A stretch of 64,000 nucleotides of DNA from positions 1-64,000 of IMG/VR virus record IMGVR_UViG_3300045988_069050; one strand, given 5' to 3'. Position 1 is the first letter of the stretch. Every line of letters starts with the position of its first letter. The notes beneath the pieces are model-generated. The model had not been told where the DNA came from, made no database searches, and worked only from the letters and a program-made list of their open reading frames with translations. Positions 34,300 through 61,974 of this stretch are shown here, in pieces. This DNA is from a virus. Made by a program: the position numbers and the translations under genes.

Positions 34300-34614
34300 A
34301 TGGACGTAAAGATTATGTTGATAAGTGATTGTATAGGAGTTGTGCTCTATGCGCTCCTATACTATACACTTTATCATACCTATGAACTAGATTATTTAGG
34401 TTCTGGAAGGTGGAGAAGGTGGAGAAGAATATCTGTGCCTGGTTGGGCTGTAGTTATAGCCCTAGTGAGCCTATGTCTTCCTCCTGTAGCTGTCTCGCTT
34501 TCTATAGTAAGCTGGATTATATATATGCTTAAGTTTCTCGGCGATAAATATTACGAGGTAGACGTTTCTTTTATTAAGTTTTTATCAAACTCAATACATG
34601 ACACGAATATTTAA
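34300..34614 (+). CDS. membrane protein (104 aa)
   Basis: Hydrophobic ORF. Confidence 0.45.
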   Translation: MDVKIMLISDCIGVVLYALLYYTLYHTYELDYLGSGRWRRWRRISVPGWAVVIALVSLCLPPVAVSLSIVSWIIYMLKFLGDKYYEVDVSFIKFLSNSIHDTNI

Positions 34615-35110
34615 ACATCTAATTAGGATTATTAAGCATAAATACTGGGTAGCACGCTATTGTTTCCAGTTAGGTCTTTATTGGCAGGGAATAGTACATG
34701 ACTGGTCTAAGTTTAGCTATACTGAATTTAGTAGGTCAATAAAGTATTGGGACGATACTATTAGTCCTCTAGCTAATGAGAAAAACATACACGGATATTC
34801 TGAAACCTTCCTACATCATCGAGGAAGAAATCCACATCACTATGAATATTGGGTTCATAGTTTAGATGAAGGAGGAGTTCCAGCGAAAATGCCAAGAAAA
34901 TATGCTTTGGAATTAGTCTGTGATTATCTGGCTGCTGGGAGAACCTATAATAAAGATTTTACCTATGGGAGTGAGTACAACTGGTGGATTAAATTTCTAA
35001 GTTCACCTAGAGCTATACATCCCGAAACCAAGGACTTCGTAACTAAATGCTTTAGGCATTTGAGTGCCGGAGGTAATATTAAATATTTATTGAAAATTGA
35101 CTATGAGTAA
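34598..35110 (+). CDS. hypothetical protein (170 aa), His-rich motif HHRGRNPHHYEYW
   Basis: ORF. Confidence 0.55.
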   Translation: MTRIFKHLIRIIKHKYWVARYCFQLGLYWQGIVHDWSKFSYTEFSRSIKYWDDTISPLANEKNIHGYSETFLHHRGRNPHHYEYWVHSLDEGGVPAKMPRKYALELVCDYLAAGRTYNKDFTYGSEYNWWIKFLSSPRAIHPETKDFVTKCFRHLSAGGNIKYLLKIDYE

Positions 35111-35921
35111 GATAATAGGGCAAGACAAGTTAATTAAGGAAGTTAATAGAATATTTCAGGTATTTGTAAATAGTAATTGCAAGATAAGACCGCACTTTAT
35201 TCTTACAGGTGAGAGCGGGTCTGGTAAGAGCTTTACTATTAAACAGTTATGTGATATGAATGAACTTAGCTTTCTAGAAGTTAATGCAGCTCAAATAACT
35301 AAAGAGGGTATTTCTGGAAATAGTTTAAGCAAAATTCTATCTCCACTTGTTAACTATAGTCACACACCTATTGTAGTCTTCGTAGACGAGTTTGATAAAC
35401 TTTTCATCAACGGAAACACTAATAGCCAACTGGCTAATGAATCTACTGCCAGTGTACAGAACGAGTTTCTCAAACTTTTAGAGTCTGATACTACTAGTGT
35501 TTTTGGCGATTATGGGAAGTACATATCAGTCCCTATTGATAATGTACTATTTGTGTTTGCTGGAGCATTCAATAATGAGCCTCACATTACATTAGATAGA
35601 CTAAGAGACTTTGGAGTTAAAACAGAGTTTCTTGGAAGAGTAGGATTAATCTACAATACTAAACCTCTCACTCTAGAGGATTTGTATTCTATCTTGGAGT
35701 GTTCAGACTTGTTGCAGAATTATCTTGACTTATTCTTTAATGTAAATAGAGAACAAGTCATTAGTGATTTGAAAGGGTATCTCGAAAGTTCTTTTCGCAA
35801 TAATACTCTTGGAGCAAGAACAATTAATACTCTTATTCACCAATACTTTATCAAAGGTGGAAAACTCGAAACTGAAGAAGTAAAAGAAATAACTTTTAAC
35901 AAAAAATTAGAATGGAAATAA
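35097..35921 (+). CDS. ClpX-like AAA+ ATPase (no zinc-finger N-domain)
   Basis: GESGSGKS Walker A, VVFVDEFDK Walker B, VQNEFLKLLE and VLFVFAGAF / TEFLGRV..LEDLYSIL segments resembling ClpX/HslU. Confidence 0.75.
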   Translation: MTMSKIIGQDKLIKEVNRIFQVFVNSNCKIRPHFILTGESGSGKSFTIKQLCDMNELSFLEVNAAQITKEGISGNSLSKILSPLVNYSHTPIVVFVDEFDKLFINGNTNSQLANESTASVQNEFLKLLESDTTSVFGDYGKYISVPIDNVLFVFAGAFNNEPHITLDRLRDFGVKTEFLGRVGLIYNTKPLTLEDLYSILECSDLLQNYLDLFFNVNREQVISDLKGYLESSFRNNTLGARTINTLIHQYFIKGGKLETEEVKEITFNKKLEWK

Positions 35922-37462
35922 TTAATGCTACAGATGGTTACAAGTTGGGCCATCACAGAATGTACCCCGAAGGTACTGAACAAGTTTATAGTAACTGGAC
36001 TCCTAGAAGTAATAAATACTTCCCAGAAGCAACCGAAGGTTCAGTAGTATTTGGTATTCAATACCTAATCAAAGAATATCTCATTAAACAGTTTGAGAAA
36101 AACTTCTTTAATCTACCAAAGAAGGAAGCTGTGGAGATGTTCTATCGTAGAGTAAACAACTTTGTTGGTATTGAATCCGTTGGGTACAGACATATTGAAG
36201 CTTTATATGACCTTGGGTATCTACCAATTCGCATAAAGGCTCTTCCTGAAGGTTCTGTGTGCCCTATTCGGGTTCCCATGATGACCATTACAAATACTCT
36301 ACCCGAGTTCTTTTGGTTAACTAACTACTTAGAGACTATTATCAGCTGTACCTTGTGGATGCCATGCACATCTGCTACTAGAGCTAGGCTTTATAAGAAA
36401 GAGCTACATCGTCATGCTTGCAAGACTGGTTTTCCAACAGATGTAAATCTTGGTTTTTGTTGTCATGATTTCTCAATGCGAGGTATGGCGGGAATGGAAG
36501 CCGCAATTATATCTGGTATGGCGCATATGACTTCTTTTGTGGGAAGTGAAACTATTCCAGCTATTGCTGCTTTGGAAGAATATTATGGAGCTAATTCAGA
36601 CGAGGAATTGATTGCTGCTACAGTTCCAGCAACAGAACACTCTGTAATGTGTGCTGGAGGAGAGGAAGATGAGCTGGGCACTTTCAAACGTCTAATTAAT
36701 GATTTGTATCCTTCTGGGTTTGTTTCTATTGTATCTGATACTTGGGATTTCTGGAATGTAATTGAAAATTTCTTGCCCAAGCTGAAGAAAGACATTATGG
36801 CTCGTGATGGTAGAGTAGTAATCCGTCCTGATAGTGGAGACCCAGTAGATATAATCTGCGGGTTGAGAACTAATCCTCACTTCAATACCAGAATGAAAGA
36901 AGGTAAGTATTATTGCTGCTATGCTCCGTTTAACGACGATGCAGAGTATGTTGAAGTGTCCGAAGGTCAATATTATGGGGCATATTATATGCTTGGTAAA
37001 ATCTTCGGATGGAATACTACTTCAAAGGATTACCGTTATCCTAGCACTAAGGTTGGTCTGCTTTATGGAGATTCTATTACTCTGGAACGTCAAAAGCAAA
37101 TCTACTTGAGATTAGAAAACGCTCATATGGCGGCTTGTAATCTCGTTCTGGGAGTAGGTTCATATTCCTATCAGTATGCAAGTAGAGATAGTCTTGGGTT
37201 TGCTATTAAGGCTACTGCTTGCGTAGTAAATGGCGAATTGAAAGAAATCTTCAAACATCCTAAAACTGATGATGGTACTAAGAACTCTTTGAAAGGTTTG
37301 ATTGCTGTCTATAAATGTCTGGATGGGAAGTATACTGCTACCGACCAGGTCTCAATCGAGGAGGAAAAAGAGGGATGCTTAGAGACTGTCTTTGAAGATG
37401 GTATCTTGAAGAAAGAATATTCTCTTGAAGAAATCAGACAAAGAATTGACCATGGACTTTAA
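35912..37462 (+). CDS. nadV: nicotinamide phosphoribosyltransferase family protein (NAMPT/NadV-like; alternatively Namat-like)
   Basis: 516 aa; N-terminal DGYKLGHH and overall NAPRTase/NAMPT family pattern. Confidence 0.85.
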   Translation: MEIINATDGYKLGHHRMYPEGTEQVYSNWTPRSNKYFPEATEGSVVFGIQYLIKEYLIKQFEKNFFNLPKKEAVEMFYRRVNNFVGIESVGYRHIEALYDLGYLPIRIKALPEGSVCPIRVPMMTITNTLPEFFWLTNYLETIISCTLWMPCTSATRARLYKKELHRHACKTGFPTDVNLGFCCHDFSMRGMAGMEAAIISGMAHMTSFVGSETIPAIAALEEYYGANSDEELIAATVPATEHSVMCAGGEEDELGTFKRLINDLYPSGFVSIVSDTWDFWNVIENFLPKLKKDIMARDGRVVIRPDSGDPVDIICGLRTNPHFNTRMKEGKYYCCYAPFNDDAEYVEVSEGQYYGAYYMLGKIFGWNTTSKDYRYPSTKVGLLYGDSITLERQKQIYLRLENAHMAACNLVLGVGSYSYQYASRDSLGFAIKATACVVNGELKEIFKHPKTDDGTKNSLKGLIAVYKCLDGKYTATDQVSIEEEKEGCLETVFEDGILKKEYSLEEIRQRIDHGL

Positions 37463-37889
37463 TCATCCTTTTGGGAAAGAAGCTTGCAAGAAACGACTAT
37501 TAGAAGAGTATCATAAATACGGAAAGCTAATAGTCGCTTTCGATTTTGATAATACTATTTTCGATTACCATAATACTGGCGGAGATTATAGTTGCGTTAT
37601 AGAACTACTTAAAGAATGCTCACTTCTAGGTTTTGAAATGATTTTATTCACCACTGATGAAGATGATTATAAAATTATGGCAAAGCAGACAATTTGTATG
37701 CGATTAGGAATAGCAAATATTACTTCTAATACTTTATCTGCTCCAAACATTAGTAGTTCTATATTCTCTAAATCTAAGAAACCTTATTACAATATCCTCC
37801 TAGATGATAGGGCAGGTCTGGAAGAAAGTTATGAAATCTTAAAATATGTAGTAGATGAAATTAAACTTAATCAACAAGGAAATCAGTGA
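37425..37889 (+). CDS. HAD-superfamily phosphatase (motif I FDFDNTIF)
   Basis: DxDxT motif. Confidence 0.65.
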   Translation: MKKSDKELTMDFNHPFGKEACKKRLLEEYHKYGKLIVAFDFDNTIFDYHNTGGDYSCVIELLKECSLLGFEMILFTTDEDDYKIMAKQTICMRLGIANITSNTLSAPNISSSIFSKSKKPYYNILLDDRAGLEESYEILKYVVDEIKLNQQGNQ

Positions 37890-38664
37890 AATTAAGTACG
37901 ATGTTACTAGATTTCCTGATGGAGAGCCTCAGTTTTTCCTTACTGAGGAATTAAACAGAAAGGAATCTATTGATGTCATTTGTAGAATATCTAATACTGA
38001 GGATTTATTCCTCTTAGTGCAAGTAGGAGATATTTTAGATAGACAAGAAGTAGAATGGGATTTACACATTACTTATTTAATGTCTATGCGTATGGATAGA
38101 GTAATGAGTTTTAATCGTCCATTCTCCTTGAAAGTAGTATGTAATATGTTAAATAGCTTAGGCTATAGAAACATATATGTTCTTGAGGCACATTCTAGTA
38201 GAACTTTTCATCTTCTTGGTGACAGATGTTTACCTTGGGAATTTGGACACCACTCTTGGATTCCAGCCCAAAGTAATATCGTGTTCCCAGACCATGGGGC
38301 GAAGGACAGATATGGAAGTAACTATTCTCACTATGGTTATTTAGTCTTCAAAAAGGAAAGAAATCTAGAGACTGGAAGAATTGAGTCCTTTGAAATAGAG
38401 GAGTCTAAGAATTGCTACTATTCTACATTTGTGTTCATTGATGACTTGTGTGATGCCGGAGGAACTTTCCTAGGAGAGCTTAAGGTTCTCAAAGAGAGAT
38501 ATCCAAATAGCAAGTTTATCATAATCGTATGTCACGCAGTTAATGATAAAGGTCTGATTAATATGTGTAATAATTTTGACCAGGTTATTGTATCTAATTC
38601 TCATAGGGATATTAATTATCGTCCCAGCAACGAGAACTTAACTGTAATAGACGTTTGTAAATAA
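37855..38664 (+). CDS. ribose-phosphate pyrophosphokinase family protein (PrsA-like; possibly ADPR-pyrophosphokinase Adps-like)
   Basis: RFPDGEPQ N-terminal motif and VFIDDLCDAGGT PRPP-binding-type loop. Confidence 0.75.
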   Translation: MKLNLINKEISEIKYDVTRFPDGEPQFFLTEELNRKESIDVICRISNTEDLFLLVQVGDILDRQEVEWDLHITYLMSMRMDRVMSFNRPFSLKVVCNMLNSLGYRNIYVLEAHSSRTFHLLGDRCLPWEFGHHSWIPAQSNIVFPDHGAKDRYGSNYSHYGYLVFKKERNLETGRIESFEIEESKNCYYSTFVFIDDLCDAGGTFLGELKVLKERYPNSKFIIIVCHAVNDKGLINMCNNFDQVIVSNSHRDINYRPSNENLTVIDVCK

Positions 38665-58261: not shown

Positions 58262-58563
58262 TAAGAAAATTTACTAACATCGTTTGTGTATATTACAACG
58301 ACAAAAATTATATTCCAGCTAAGTATAATTGTCCAGACTTAGAGATTGATGATGTAATTCTCAACCTGACTACAAACAAGGAACAGAATTATGAAAAGAT
58401 TTCTGAGATTATTGTTGATTATGCCTTTGCTTTGTTCTGTAACAAATCTGATTTAAAAGATTTTTCACAAGACCATAAGAAATATAAGAGACAGAACTGG
58501 AAATTGCTTGATTTTAGGGAAATAATTAAAACAACAGAGATAAAACCAAAAGATCAGAAATGA
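58258..58563 (+). CDS. hypothetical protein (101 aa)
   Basis: ORF. Confidence 0.45.
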   Translation: MIRKFTNIVCVYYNDKNYIPAKYNCPDLEIDDVILNLTTNKEQNYEKISEIIVDYAFALFCNKSDLKDFSQDHKKYKRQNWKLLDFREIIKTTEIKPKDQK

Positions 58564-59114
58564 AATATGGAGTTATTTTAGCTAGGTTTCAGCCCATTCA
58601 CAATGGGCACCTAGCTTTAATTAAAAAAGCTTGTTCAGAGAACGATAAGGTTCTTTTGTTAGTTGGTAGTGCTGATAAAGTAAACAAGCGTAATCCTATT
58701 CCTATAAAGGTTAGGATAAAATTACTAGAAACTGCCTTAGAGGACGAAGGTTTACTTAGTAGATGTATCATTCACCCTCTTAATGATTTGACTGATGAGT
58801 CTGATAACTCTCAGGATTGGGGATTCTATTTATATGCTAACATAGTTAGTATTATAAAAGAGTCCCATTTTAATATCTACTATAGCGATGGATACGAAAT
58901 TATTACAACATGGTTTCCAAAGTTTATGCTGAAGGGTTATATATCAATGACTCTCATGGCAAGAGAACAGGTAGAAGAAGGTATATCGGCTACTGTTGTA
59001 AGAGATGCCCTAAGATCTAATTTAAGCCTAGAAGGACTAGTTCCTAAGTGTGTTATAGATGCAAGATTTTATTTAACTGAATTTATTTTATTACATGAAA
59101 GTACTCATAATTAA
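58560..59114 (+). CDS. nicotinamide-nucleotide adenylyltransferase-like nucleotidyltransferase ([10 protein letters not shown])
   Basis: (H/T)xGH nucleotidyltransferase motif in the RFQP.H.GH context typical of NadM/NadR-type NMNAT. Confidence 0.75.
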
Positions 59115-59676
59115 TAAATCAAGACATCAACTTCCTCAGTATGAAACTCCCTTATCAGCAGGTATGGATATTAGAGGAGACTTTAGTAGAATTAAGTTAG
59201 TAGACAATAAGCCTGAGAAATTCTTTTTCGATGCTGATGTTGTAGCTATTAGTAAAATTGAAGATCCAAATGGTCCATTTGTGGTAGACAAGGAAGGAAA
59301 TCTTACTGATAGAAGAGTTCCTAGTATTCCCGTTGCTTCTACTATTGAAATAAAGCCCGGAGGTAGATGTTTGATTCCGACTGGATTGTTTATAGCTTTA
59401 CCTAAGGGTTACGAGGCGCAAGTTCGACCACGAAGCGGTCTTGCATTAAAATTGGGACTTACTGTCCTTAATTCACCTGGAACCATTGACGCCGACTACA
59501 GAGGAGAGATTGGAGTTGTATTAGTGAACACTTCTAATGTCCCAGTTAGAATTACTGATGGAGAAAGAATTGCCCAAATAGTTATTGCTAAGCATGAAAC
59601 TATAGAATGGGAAGTTGTTGAAGAATTACCTTCCACTGAACGAGGAGAAGGGGGATTTGGACATACCGGAGTATGA
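59095..59676 (+). CDS. dut: dUTP diphosphatase
   Basis: dUTPase motifs [35 protein letters not shown]. Confidence 0.9.
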
Positions 59677-60555: not shown

Positions 60556-60782
60556 CACTAGAAGAACTTAAAAAGAAAGTAGTCACTATTACAGTACACA
60601 AAAATATTGTATTAGGGGAAGATTTACATGAAGATGATCTGCTAGAGTTTCTCGAACTGCAAGAGGAGGAGGCTTGTTCTGATGAAAGATTATTACAAGC
60701 AATAAAAAATGCCTACTACGGAACTCTTAGTGATATTGAAGATATTATCTACGATAACCTCAATGTAACTATTCATGATTAA
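60552..60782 (+). CDS. hypothetical acidic protein
   Basis: ORF. Confidence 0.4.
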   Translation: MTLEELKKKVVTITVHKNIVLGEDLHEDDLLEFLELQEEEACSDERLLQAIKNAYYGTLSDIEDIIYDNLNVTIHD

Positions 60783-61974
60783 ATATTTGTTAAGCAAAGC
60801 CTCAACTGGCAAGTTTAGAGTTGTATATTTATCTACTACAGAGCAGTGGGATGAAGAAAAAGCTGGATTTGTAATTAATAGAGTTACAGGACAGCTACAT
60901 GGAAAGATGACAGAGCAACCAGAAATAGTCATTACTAAAGGAAAAGCTGGTAGAACGCATAGAGAACAACTTGAGTTGCAGTTTAAGTCTGAGCTTAAGA
61001 AATATTTAGATAAGGGTTACAAGGAGCTAGAGAACGATCCCGAAACTTATAGCGAAACTCAATTGGAAGAATTTTATGGAGACATTAAAACCGACCAGAA
61101 TGGATTTGCAAAGCACATGCTTGCAAAATCTGCAGATAAAGTTAAGGAATCCTCAATCAATAAGGTTAAGTATTGGTATGCTAGCAGAAAAATTGATGGA
61201 GTTAGGTGTTCCTTCTACTATAAGGACGGTGAGATTCTATCTGCTTCCAGAGGTGGGGGAAATTATGACTATTCAACAAGCCATATCCGAAACAATGAGA
61301 AATTGCTTGAGTTCTTCAGGAATCATCCCACTTACATTCTTGATGGAGAGTTGTATAGACATGGTAAAAGTCTCCAACAAATCAGTGGAGCAGCTCGTCT
61401 TGAGAAAAACGCAGTTGACTGCGACTGGCTTGAATATTATGTTTACGATATAATGATTCCTAGTATGAAGTTCTCTGATAGGCTTGAAATTCTTAAGCAG
61501 CTTCAGAAAGAACTTAATCTTGGATTTAATCCAGATAAAGATTGGGAAGAGGGTGAGTTACAATTGCAAATAGTCCCGCAGGAAAAGGTCTCTGGATACG
61601 AGAATATTATGAAACTGCACAACCAATATGTTTCAGAAGGTTGGGAAGGAGTAGTATGTAGAAATCCAGATAAAGAGTATGGCTTCGGTAAGCGTACTAA
61701 TGATATGCTAAAATTTAAATTCTACAAAGATGCAGAGTTTGAAATTACTGGTTTATCAGAAGGTCTTCGGGAAGAAGATATGTGTTTTACGCTAATAACA
61801 GAAGATGGTATAGAATTTAAAGCTAAACCAATGGGTTCTAGAGAACTTAAACAACAGTATAGGGAAAGACTTAAGGAGCTGATAGGAAAGATGGCTACTG
61901 TTAAGTATTTCTATCTATCTGATGAAGGTACTCCATTGCAACCTGTACTAAAATGTATTCGCGATTATGAGTAA
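60775..61974 (+). CDS. ATP-dependent DNA (or RNA) ligase
   Basis: Motif I ASRKIDGVR (KxDGxR), DGELY motif, LKFKFYKD motif V. Confidence 0.8.
   Translation: MIKYLLSKASTGKFRVVYLSTTEQWDEEKAGFVINRVTGQLHGKMTEQPEIVITKGKAGRTHREQLELQFKSELKKYLDKGYKELENDPETYSETQLEEFYGDIKTDQNGFAKHMLAKSADKVKESSINKVKYWYASRKIDGVRCSFYYKDGEILSASRGGGNYDYSTSHIRNNEKLLEFFRNHPTYILDGELYRHGKSLQQISGAARLEKNAVDCDWLEYYVYDIMIPSMKFSDRLEILKQLQKELNLGFNPDKDWEEGELQLQIVPQEKVSGYENIMKLHNQYVSEGWEGVVCRNPDKEYGFGKRTNDMLKFKFYKDAEFEITGLSEGLREEDMCFTLITEDGIEFKAKPMGSRELKQQYRERLKELIGKMATVKYFYLSDEGTPLQPVLKCIRDYE

Follow-up and report, generated by a model that had tools for sequence, protein, structure and literature searches.

A probable NARP1 operon for NAD+ reconstitution, with an additional HAD phosphatase gene, in a phage genome

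NARP1 is an established NAD+ reconstitution pathway found in ~4% of phages. Its two genes, coding for Adps and Namat, have been described in phages Bas63, SpβL1 and Fado (Osterman et al., bioRxiv 10.1101/2024.02.11.579819), and structures of Namat have been solved (9w5w/9w5x; PMC12774641). In the variant called NARP1-AP, described in Vibrio phage Gary, the genes follow the order Adps, Macro-domain Adpp and Namat (bioRxiv 10.64898/2026.01.28.702374). In 15% of NARP1 operons, a gene lying between those of Adps and Namat codes for a Macro-domain ADPR-1P phosphatase, which defeats aRES. We have confirmed the same layout in Vibrio phage Chazly21. In the literature searched, Macro-domain and RyR proteins are the only accessories described for NARP1. 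The other relevant phage pathway, NARP2, is represented by the NadV and NatV proteins of KVP40, and no phage was reported in the original survey to combine it with NARP1. Lastly, NrtR-regulated prs-nadV operons have been described in bacteria (Rodionov et al., 2008; PMC2330246). In that work the genes were read as Prs and NadV, no HAD gene was described, and ADPR was found to weaken DNA binding of the two NrtR proteins tested.

The window analyzed here is a stretch of 64,000 nt of viral DNA. Its region 35912-38664 is probably, as judged from sequence, a NARP1 operon extended by a third gene that codes for a HAD phosphatase. The relevant features are the following:

35097..35921, + strand: AAA-family ATPase (PF00004, 1e-12; phrog_5534, 8e-116)
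35912..37462, + strand: predicted Namat (nicotinamide ADP-ribose transferase, Nampt fold), 516 aa (PF04095 and PF18127, clamp motif)
37425..37889, + strand: predicted small capless HAD-superfamily phosphatase, 154 aa (catalytic motifs, AF2 model, NARP1 neighborhood)
37855..38664, + strand: predicted Adps (ADP-ribose pyrophosphate synthetase, Prs-like), 269 aa (neighbor-joining clade, catalytic Lys)
58560..59114, + strand: predicted stand-alone NadM/archaeal-type NMN adenylyltransferase (NMNAT), 184 aa (PF01467, PDB matches)

The last four of these ORFs, all on the + strand, are found where an earlier note on this DNA had put them, and the family matches of the Namat, Adps and NMNAT proteins are far beyond chance. 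Overlaps of 38 nt between the Namat and HAD genes, 35 nt between the HAD and Adps genes and 10 nt between the upstream AAA-ATPase gene and that of Namat make these neighboring genes one tightly packed, co-directional block, with an alternative ATG at 37452 as the possible true start of the HAD gene. The AAA-ATPase gene, which only some near-identical relatives carry upstream of Namat, is probably a variable neighbor rather than a core part of the block. The carrier is a gut phage, of a family with genomes of ~190 kb.

As in Bas63, SpβL1 and Fado, an Adps-clade gene and a clamp-motif, Nampt-fold gene lie in one co-directional cluster of a phage genome, and they are found in each other's vicinity, as the definition of NARP1 has it, with the single 154-aa gene between them. 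Unlike in those phages, the Namat gene comes first here, and a third gene is interposed.

The 516-aa protein matches PF04095 (3e-32) and PF18127 (1e-9) in Pfam, and NF006629 (2e-157) in NCBIfam. The Pfam and NCBIfam names, NAMPT/NAPRTase for this protein and Prs for the 269-aa one, speak for an ordinary PRPP salvage route of the KVP40/NARP2 type, in which Prs would supply PRPP, the NAMPT-like enzyme would make NMN and the NMNAT would convert it to NAD+, the HAD protein being a side activity. Against it, the score of the 516-aa protein with the solved Namat of SpβL1 (9w5x/9w5w; 488 bits) is twice that with human NAMPT (~227 bits) among PDB sequences, and its clamp motif and, as far as the alignment shows, its clamp loop are of the Namat type. 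The published selectivity-clamp motif of Namat, GSXΦXΦXΦTRD with aromatic residues at X, is absent from Nampt. Here, the clamp helix reads GSYSYQYASRD (aa 416-426). Each of the three X positions is aromatic, and Ser replaces the Thr of the TRD triad, a difference from the known NARP1 Namats. The corresponding sequence of the Nampts of NARP2, both KVP40-like and T4-like, GMGGGLLQ..RD, is not found in the 516-aa protein. The clamp loop resembles that of other Namats in its length, and in the sequence alignment a Lys-Tyr pair occupies the position concerned; the published criterion is a stacking residue, which is either Arg or a residue preceded by Lys/Tyr. The catalytic core is kept, with Phe189, Arg192, the catalytic His, Arg306 and Asp308 in SpβL1 numbering, the last two being shared with the Namats of the described NARP1 systems. 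The exception, a second difference from known NARP1 Namats, is the replacement by Glu of Asp215, which hydrogen-bonds nicotinamide; this replacement, a point against the assignment, is common to crAss-like phages. A variable insertion is present at approximately aa 318-355. In tblastn comparisons, identities are 34-50% to the Namat clade and at most 30% to the Nampt clade. For the KVP40-like and T4-like Nampts, the alignment gives 30-32% and tblastn 29-30%. The 516-aa protein is thus assigned by its motifs as a Namat and not a Nampt, with a predicted specificity for ADPR-PP over PRPP. PRPP salvage draws some support from the fact that Namat enzymes make NMN from PRPP in vitro.

The evidence on the 269-aa Prs-like protein points the same way. 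It scores 58 bits (5.5e-16) with TIGR01251, under the cut-off of 113, whereas E. coli Prs reaches 423 bits and the NARP1-type Adps proteins of other phages 55-140 bits. It fails every curated Prs threshold, all equivalog models of NCBIfam being far under cut-off. In a neighbor-joining tree, which is small, it falls inside a clade of ten NARP1-adjacent proteins that is split from seven true Prs proteins in 200 of 200 bootstraps. In the phylogenetic check that the earlier note had proposed, true PrsA versus Adps, this placement favors the Adps clade; phrog_619 does not discriminate. The catalytic Lys is conserved as in Bas63, SpβL1 and Fado. It is assigned by inspection to K167, in a K-x-R motif, the automatic alignment having set K166 opposite the preceding Asp, and it corresponds to K197 of B. 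subtilis Prs and K162 of SpβL1 Adps. Further conserved residues are R79, D81, R169, D196 and D200, and M80, A112, C199 and A201 are in Adps-type states. By sequence, the protein belongs to the Adps clade, although its identities are no higher than 24-33% to the Adps proteins of Felix O1-like (the group that includes Bas63), Staphylococcus, Bacillus and ICP1 phages. A housekeeping ribose-phosphate diphosphokinase was considered for it and rejected on the TIGR01251 score and the tree placement, both of which also run counter to PRPP salvage. Together with gene adjacency, the clamp motif, the catalytic residues and the similarity to solved Namats, the Adps-clade placement upholds the proposal of the earlier note that these two genes represent NARP1.

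PRPP salvage could also invoke the NMNAT encoded in the same genome. The 184-aa protein matches PF01467 (2e-11), and its best NCBIfam matches are NMNAT models, all under cut-off (PRK01153, 57 bits against 127). Its best matches among PDB sequences are NMN adenylyltransferases, with 1f9a at the top (9e-10), and a 13-letter stretch and the sequence ISATVVR align to motifs of MJ0541 (1f9a). As in the NadV-NatV pair of KVP40, a nicotinamide-using enzyme of the phosphoribosyltransferase fold and an NMN adenylyltransferase are thus found in one phage, and the presence of an Nmnat homolog in the same genome, part of the definition of NARP2, is provided by this NadM-type protein. Unlike in KVP40, the transferase is of the Namat type and the two genes are 20 kb apart. 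The 184-aa protein also lacks the Nudix ADPR-pyrophosphatase domain, which supplies ribose-5-phosphate in NatV (343 aa in nt-1), and its phage relatives are NMNAT-Nudix fusions, the closest being that of Bacteroides phage BS-TP1 (53%). The distance and the missing Nudix half count against PRPP salvage, which we regard as quite improbable. The suggestion in the earlier note that the NAMPT-like and NMNAT genes make up a NARP2/KVP40 NadV/NatV pathway accordingly fails, since the transferase is Namat-type, with at most 30% identity to NARP2 Nampts, and the Nudix half is absent. Its remark that a Prs-like gene and a stand-alone NMNAT in one genome are notable, in contrast, holds, NARP1 with such an NMNAT being unusual in the light of the original survey.

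The sub-threshold NMNAT scores, and the location of the gene in a nucleotide-metabolism cluster (NrdD, NrdG and dUTPase), might instead suggest that this protein is cytidylyltransferase-like and works with the Prs-like and HAD proteins on sugar nucleotides or in DNA modification, outside NAD+ metabolism. This is scarcely credible, as a Namat gene is firmly linked to the Prs-like and HAD genes in this genome and at more than 100 other loci, and the nucleotidyltransferase is encoded 20 kb away, its best matches being NMNATs with NMN-binding motifs. The NMNAT occurs together with the trio in about 42 IMG/VR contigs, and the pairing is conserved throughout the phage family.

NARP1 being an established pathway, what is new in this locus is the middle gene, a candidate third component. 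Its 154-aa product shows the hallmarks of the HAD superfamily, namely motifs I (DxDxT), II (S/T), III (K) and IV (DD) on a Rossmannoid core. Across 32 homologs, motif I, DFDNT (D40/D42/T44), K119 and DD127-128 do not vary. The AF2 model has a pLDDT of 88, and the fold is confirmed. The protein is therefore predicted to be a catalytically intact, capless HAD phosphatase. No Pfam or NCBIfam model covers it. The nearest structural relative is BT_0820 (PDB 2obb); nevertheless, the protein is not a member of the corresponding NCBIfam family, with 20 bits to NF046079 against a cut-off of 165, and its NARP1-linked homologs score at most 35 bits. As BT_0820 has no assigned substrate, the structural match gives the HAD protein no function.

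The gene neighborhood is more informative. HAD homologs lie beside NARP1-type genes, in the same orientation, at 68 of 78 viral loci and at 39 of 68 genome loci. The gene orders number at least five. The order is Namat-HAD-Adps in Crassvirales and Adps-Namat-HAD in Bacillus herelleviruses, and Nampt-Prs-HAD occurs in four further genome loci. In Lak megaphages the HAD and Adps genes are kept together, with Namat 100-225 kb away. Adjacency is also seen in Flavobacteriia, Saprospiraceae and Paenibacillaceae. By these sequence comparisons, the association of HAD homologs with NARP1 genes recurs in numerous phages and bacteria that are not related to one another, from gut crAss-like phages, Lak megaphages and Bacillus phages to many bacterial chromosomes. 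That the HAD gene might be a mere passenger, or moron, lodged between the NARP1 genes with no role in NAD+ metabolism could be argued from the mosaicism of phage genomes, in that the HAD allele swaps independently in the phage family (~70% identity while its neighbors are 99% identical). In addition, about a quarter of the sampled HAD loci have no NARP1 neighbor, some family members being found in unrelated contexts, and two-gene NARP1 operons work without HAD in published tests. The conservation of adjacency across these gene orders, from Crassvirales to Paenibacillaceae, the overlaps with both neighbors, the invariant catalytic residues and the NrtR gene that usually lies within 5 kb of the bacterial clusters (30 genome loci with HAD) nevertheless weigh strongly against a passenger, which we consider very unlikely.

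Under the favored reading, a three-gene NARP1 operon, and following the published biochemistry of these families, a host NADase would split NAD+ into ADP-ribose and nicotinamide, Adps would use ATP to convert ADPR into ADPR-pyrophosphate, and Namat would join the latter to nicotinamide to regenerate NAD+. The context of the HAD gene suggests that its product may dephosphorylate an ADPR derivative and thereby let ADPR back into the pathway. The most likely substrates would be ADPR-1''-phosphate or ADPR-2''-phosphate, arising from RES-type defenses or from decay of ADPR-PP. In vivo, ADPR-PP decays to ADPR-cyclic phosphate. HAD enzymes are monoesterases and cannot open this cyclic phosphate alone, a point against this role. 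The HAD protein might nonetheless do the job of the Macro-domain Adpp of NARP1-AP by means of an unrelated fold. The two arrangements are alike in having three genes with a small phosphatase between the core two, likely a functional parallel, and they differ in the fold of that phosphatase, HAD here and Macro there. NARP1-AP is defined by a Poa1p-like Macro gene at most two genes away; no Pfam Macro match was found in the flanking ORFs, and tblastn with a Macro Adpp homolog as the query gave no match in the 64,000-nt window. The earlier note had proposed NMN or ADPR-related intermediates as substrates of the HAD protein. The conserved neighborhood strengthens the second possibility, and the first has become less likely, since Namat yields NAD+ and not NMN.

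A substrate other than an ADPR phosphate, within the same pathway, is a less favored but serious possibility. Candidates are NADP+ or 2'-phospho-ADPR, which would tap the NADP pool, PPi, whose removal would drive the reactions of Namat and NMNAT towards their products, or a nucleotide, for instance NMN. A shared substrate such as PPi or a 2'-phosphate would fit the link of the HAD family to both Adps-Namat and Prs-NadV operons. In Mucilaginibacter, a family member is found in a genuine NrtR-NadM-NadV-Prs operon, with Nampt-type and Prs-type genes, so that its substrate need not be ADPR-specific; this operon can also be quoted in support of PRPP salvage. Furthermore, a Macro Adpp-like gene and a HAD gene occur together at one locus (L113), which argues against simple redundancy, and two homologs (P0197 and P0219) are fused to a nucleoside 2-deoxyribosyltransferase-like domain. 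A HAD-fold inorganic pyrophosphatase, BT2127, is known. Nothing speaks directly against this possibility as a whole. An NMN nucleotidase would, however, oppose NAD+ recovery, hosts are already rich in pyrophosphatase, and the one published NARP1 accessory phosphatase, which occupies the same slot, acts on ADPR-1''P.

Dephosphorylation of an ADPR derivative, if this is what the HAD protein does, would mean that phages have recruited two unrelated folds for the same counter-counter-defense step, and surveys restricted to Macro domains would then underestimate the NARP1 operons armored against RES-type defenses. As for the NMNAT, its context suggests that it may add a reaction from NMN and ATP to NAD+, with NMN coming from residual PRPP activity of Namat or from a defense that cuts NAD+ into NMN and AMP, as the Metis system does. 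The enzyme could reverse this cleavage, and its conserved pairing with the trio is of interest for the question whether phages counter such recently described defenses. On a bolder and tentative view, which we think doubtful as a whole, the genome would carry one toolkit against all three known routes of NAD+ destruction: Adps and Namat against SIR2, TIR and SEFIR, the HAD protein, an independently evolved ADPR-phosphate phosphatase and non-homologous replacement of the Macro Adpp, against RES, and the NMNAT against Metis-type cleavage. The HAD protein would also be a core part of an NrtR-regulated, ADPR-recycling operon of bacteria. Such an operon would account for a puzzle pointed out in 2008, that of a 'second prs paralog next to nadV'. 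The bacterial relatives of the trio adjoin NrtR as the prs-nadV operons do, unlike the phage copy, which has no regulator gene, and the NrtR genes beside them suggest a concrete role for the 'bacterial NARP1' left open in published papers. The existing annotation of the HAD protein as 'phosphoheptose isomerase' is a mislabel.

The four open reading frames named in the earlier note are all present, and they lie in the window with their neighbors as follows.

Genes of the NARP1 block and of the NMNAT region
34598-35110: DUF5662 gene, upstream of the block, in all relatives
35097-35921: AAA-family ATPase gene (phrog_5534, unknown function), overlapping the Namat start, only in some relatives
35912-37462, + strand: NAMPT-like protein, 516 aa, predicted Namat
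37425-37889, + strand: HAD-family protein, 154 aa
37855-38664, + strand: Prs-like protein, 269 aa, predicted Adps
58560-59114, + strand: NadM-type NMNAT, 184 aa
53989-57643, 59095-59676 and 60775-61974: cluster around the NMNAT gene (NrdD, radical-SAM/4Fe-4S ORF, dUTPase, ATP-dependent DNA ligase)

The window is AT-rich (~36% G+C), its GC skew is positive over the whole length, and all 17 of its ORFs of at least 250 aa are on the + strand. The closest sequence is a human-gut 'Bacteriophage sp.' fragment (99.8% identity), and nearly identical copies of the module occur on IMG/VR contigs whose lengths reach 185-193 kb. The Namat and HAD genes overlap by 38 nt, the HAD and Adps genes by 35 nt, and the upstream AAA-ATPase gene overlaps that of Namat by 10 nt; the block is compact and forms a single unit of transcription and translation. 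Promoter-like sites were no more frequent than expected by chance, and the 7 terminator-like sites detected (3.3 ± 1.7 expected) were not informative on operon boundaries. The phage also encodes an OmpA-family outer-membrane beta-barrel protein (PF13505 and PF00691; 33018-34034), whose N-terminus is hydrophobic and by eye resembles a signal peptide, and a 652-aa SPFH/Band 7 protein (10502-12460). An SPFH gene is found two genes downstream of the NARP1 trio in the crAss-like phage cr126_1 (L001:6462-7253).

The 516-aa protein harbors Nampt domains, and the question of whether it is a Nampt or a Namat is answered in favor of Namat by sequence evidence. In a sequence search of the PDB, it scored 488 bits against 9w5x/9w5w, whose residue numbering is that of the published SpβL1 Namat structure, versus ~227 bits against human NAMPT. 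That structure served to define a Namat-specific 'selectivity clamp', made of a helix with the motif GSXΦXΦXΦTRD, which contacts the ADPR-PP adenine by stacking of its aromatic X residues, and of a longer β1-β2 loop (PMC12774641). The clamp helix of the window protein reads GSYSYQYASRD, and the pattern GS[YF][ST]Y[QA][YF]x[ST]RD fits all seven other NARP1-type proteins aligned, which come from crAss-like, Bacillus, Staphylococcus, ICP1 and Felix O1-like phages. In contrast, the aligned NARP2 Nampts of KVP40-like and T4-like phages have GMGGGLLQ..RD and a shorter loop. Finally, tblastn identities over 2046 phage records split into two groups, at 34-50% for Namat-type and at most 30% for Nampt-type proteins. 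The catalytic residues are kept save for the replacement of Asp215 by Glu, which is common to crAss-like phages. Relative to SpβL1 Namat, an insertion of ~30-40 aa follows the IICG strand (36863-36976, Namat residues 318-355), a site that is variable among Namats and carries ~100 aa in Felix O1-like phages.

Pairwise identities for Adps against Prs are 20-33% everywhere and hence uninformative, and they were replaced by a bootstrapped tree and by curated-model scores. The phrog_619 profile fails to separate Adps from cellular Prs, as E. coli Prs scores 193 bits with it and the window protein 176, and it was discarded as a classifier. Curated Prs models do discriminate: with TIGR01251 (cut-off 113 bits), E. 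coli Prs scores 423 bits, the NARP1-type Adps proteins of other phages 55-140, and the window protein 58. For the phylogeny of the Prs-like protein, a neighbor-joining tree was computed from ten proteins encoded next to NARP1 genes and seven cellular ones that are true Prs or Prs-like. The window protein falls within the NARP1-adjacent clade in 200/200 bootstraps, and its place there is beside the crAss-like phages. The alignment shows the Adps rather than the Prs state at four columns. K167 was assigned, by inspection of the K-x-R motif, to the Lys equivalent to SpβL1 K162 and B. subtilis K197, and the automatic alignment had K166 opposite the Asp before it; this Lys has been mutated by others (Osterman et al., 10.1101/2024.02.11.579819). 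A Namat neighbor has been reported for 97% of Adps-clade genes and is rare for bacterial prs genes (Osterman et al., 10.1101/2024.02.11.579819). Judged by sequence, the 269-aa protein is an Adps, and the proposal of the earlier note that the pair forms NARP1 is borne out at every level testable here.

The NARP1 part of the locus is thus a new member of a known pathway; the HAD accessory and its linkage are the part for specialists to test. The 154-aa protein has no Pfam match, a weak NCBIfam match only, and no hit in a PDB sequence search. Nevertheless, the HAD motifs DFDNT, K119 and DD127-128 are invariant among 32 homologs, and an exhaustive profile search collected 864 representative clusters, which makes the family a sizeable one. 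Membership of the BT0820 family, for this protein and its NARP1-linked relatives, was rejected on a curated-family search. PHROG 1238 and RefSeq call the family members of crAss-like and Bacillus phages 'phosphoheptose isomerase' (window 37425-37889; L001:5025-5450; L002:4965-5357), which looks like a misnomer.

Among the loci fetched through HAD homologs, NARP1 genes lie within 5 kb of the HAD gene in 68 of 78 viral loci, and NARP1-type genes occur in 39 of 68 genome loci, with Nampt-Prs-HAD in 4 more. HAD and NARP1 genes are always co-oriented, in at least five gene orders: Namat-HAD-Adps in three genera of crAss-like phages, for instance, and Adps-Namat-HAD in Bacillus herelleviruses. In Lak megaphages, HAD and Adps are adjacent and Namat lies 100-225 kb away (Lak-B2, L031:6001-7295 and MK250021.1 195703-197172, respectively). 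In about a quarter of the loci, HAD occurs by itself and the context is unrelated; a tree without bootstraps groups these copies into a few subclades that lie among NARP1-linked branches. Their neighbors are radical-SAM genes or proteins of unknown function, among which no link to NAD+ was found. One such subclade has radical-SAM genes on both sides, on phage-like contigs (L079:4253-6351; L190:4298-6396).

Many genome loci are on true chromosomes. The Tamlana trio has ileS-dksA-lspA on one side and folate or RimK genes on the other, and it immediately follows a gene that encodes a Nudix domain and an NrtR winged-helix domain (L054:2741-6105). An NrtR-like gene is found within 5 kb in 30 genome loci and in no viral locus, beside Namat-HAD-Adps or other trio orders (L054, L057-L065, L069, L077, L081, L092 and others). 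ADPR weakened DNA binding of both NrtR proteins tested in an earlier study, which in 2008 singled out 'nrtR-prs-nadV with a second prs paralog' as a case without explanation (PMC2330246); many of these operons may be bacterial NARP1. In Mucilaginibacter, HAD is the last gene of an NrtR-NadM(Nudix)-NadV-Prs operon, whose transferase has a Nampt sequence and whose kinase looks like a true Prs. Searches of the available literature for a HAD-NARP1 link or for BT0820 function returned nothing, and the wide linkage of HAD, which in phages is to NARP1 and in bacteria to operons beside NrtR genes, is apparently undescribed.

Two NARP1 accessories appear in the literature searched, the Macro-domain ADPR-1''P phosphatase Adpp and a RyR-domain glycosidase, and the text of neither paper mentions HAD. 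Adpp is present in 15% of NARP1 operons; its gene separates Adps from Namat in Vibrio phage Gary, and with it NARP1 works again in the face of aRES, a defence with a RES domain (10.64898/2026.01.28.702374); the same layout was confirmed in Vibrio phage Chazly21. In the HAD-fetched loci, no significant Macro homolog was found except in L113, a metagenomic cluster where an Adpp-like Macro gene, Adps, two small ORFs and HAD, cut off by the contig end, follow each other (L113:3139-5192). Strict mutual exclusivity is ruled out by this locus, where both phosphatase types co-occur, and as a single case it speaks against the two being simply redundant. In vivo, ADPR-PP breaks down to an ADPR-cyclic phosphate. 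One substrate class would suit the Adps-Namat context as well as that of Prs-NadV: a pentose 1- or 2-phosphate that remains from the activated pyrophosphate intermediate, or RES-made ADPR-1''P. From context, an ADPR-phosphate phosphatase ranks first as the role of HAD, a tentative choice as regards the exact substrate. Ranked after it, and rather unlikely, are 2'-phospho-ADPR or NADP+, PPi, or a nucleotide. A hint at nucleotide-type substrates comes from two HAD-family members, P0197 and P0219, each of which carries a fused nucleoside 2-deoxyribosyltransferase-like domain (PF15891); the only other fusion found, to GIY-YIG, probably reflects either the insertion of a homing endonuclease or an error of gene calling, and domain fusions were not decisive as a substrate guide.

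Near-identical phages carry swapped alleles: HAD can be as low as ~70% in identity where both Namat and Adps reach 99%, and Adps can be at 42% where Namat is at 98%. Internal deletions have removed the Namat C-terminus and most of HAD in two relatives (comparisons of L029 and L027 with window 36608-37829 and 37027-37715; MT836666.1). The module is therefore dispensable and often recombining, as expected for a counter-defence cassette.

The 184-aa protein aligns with the archaeal NMNAT of M. jannaschii, with the nucleotidyltransferase motif HxGH, NS..W (which we take to be NMN-binding) and ISATVVR all conserved. In phages, the related sequences form the N-terminal half of NMNAT-Nudix fusions, whereas the window protein lacks a Nudix domain. 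Osterman et al. found NARP1 and NARP2 together in no phage (10.1101/2024.02.11.579819). The window phage has the second enzyme of NARP2 alongside NARP1, but it does not strictly break this rule because it lacks a KVP40-type Nampt. NMNAT and the trio occur together in about 42 IMG/VR contigs, so that the pairing is stable in this phage family. Namat makes NMN from PRPP in vitro (PMC12774641), and NAD+ cleavage by the Metis defence yields NMN and AMP; either source would give NMNAT something to do, a proposal of this analysis that is absent from the literature searched. An NAD+-dependent ligase was rejected as the reason for NMNAT, the window ligase being ATP-dependent. The NMNAT gene lies 20 kb from the trio, in a nucleotide-metabolism cluster whose NrdD is an anaerobic ribonucleotide reductase; the weak radical-SAM/4Fe-4S ORF there (Fer4_12, below cut-off) may be its activase, NrdG.
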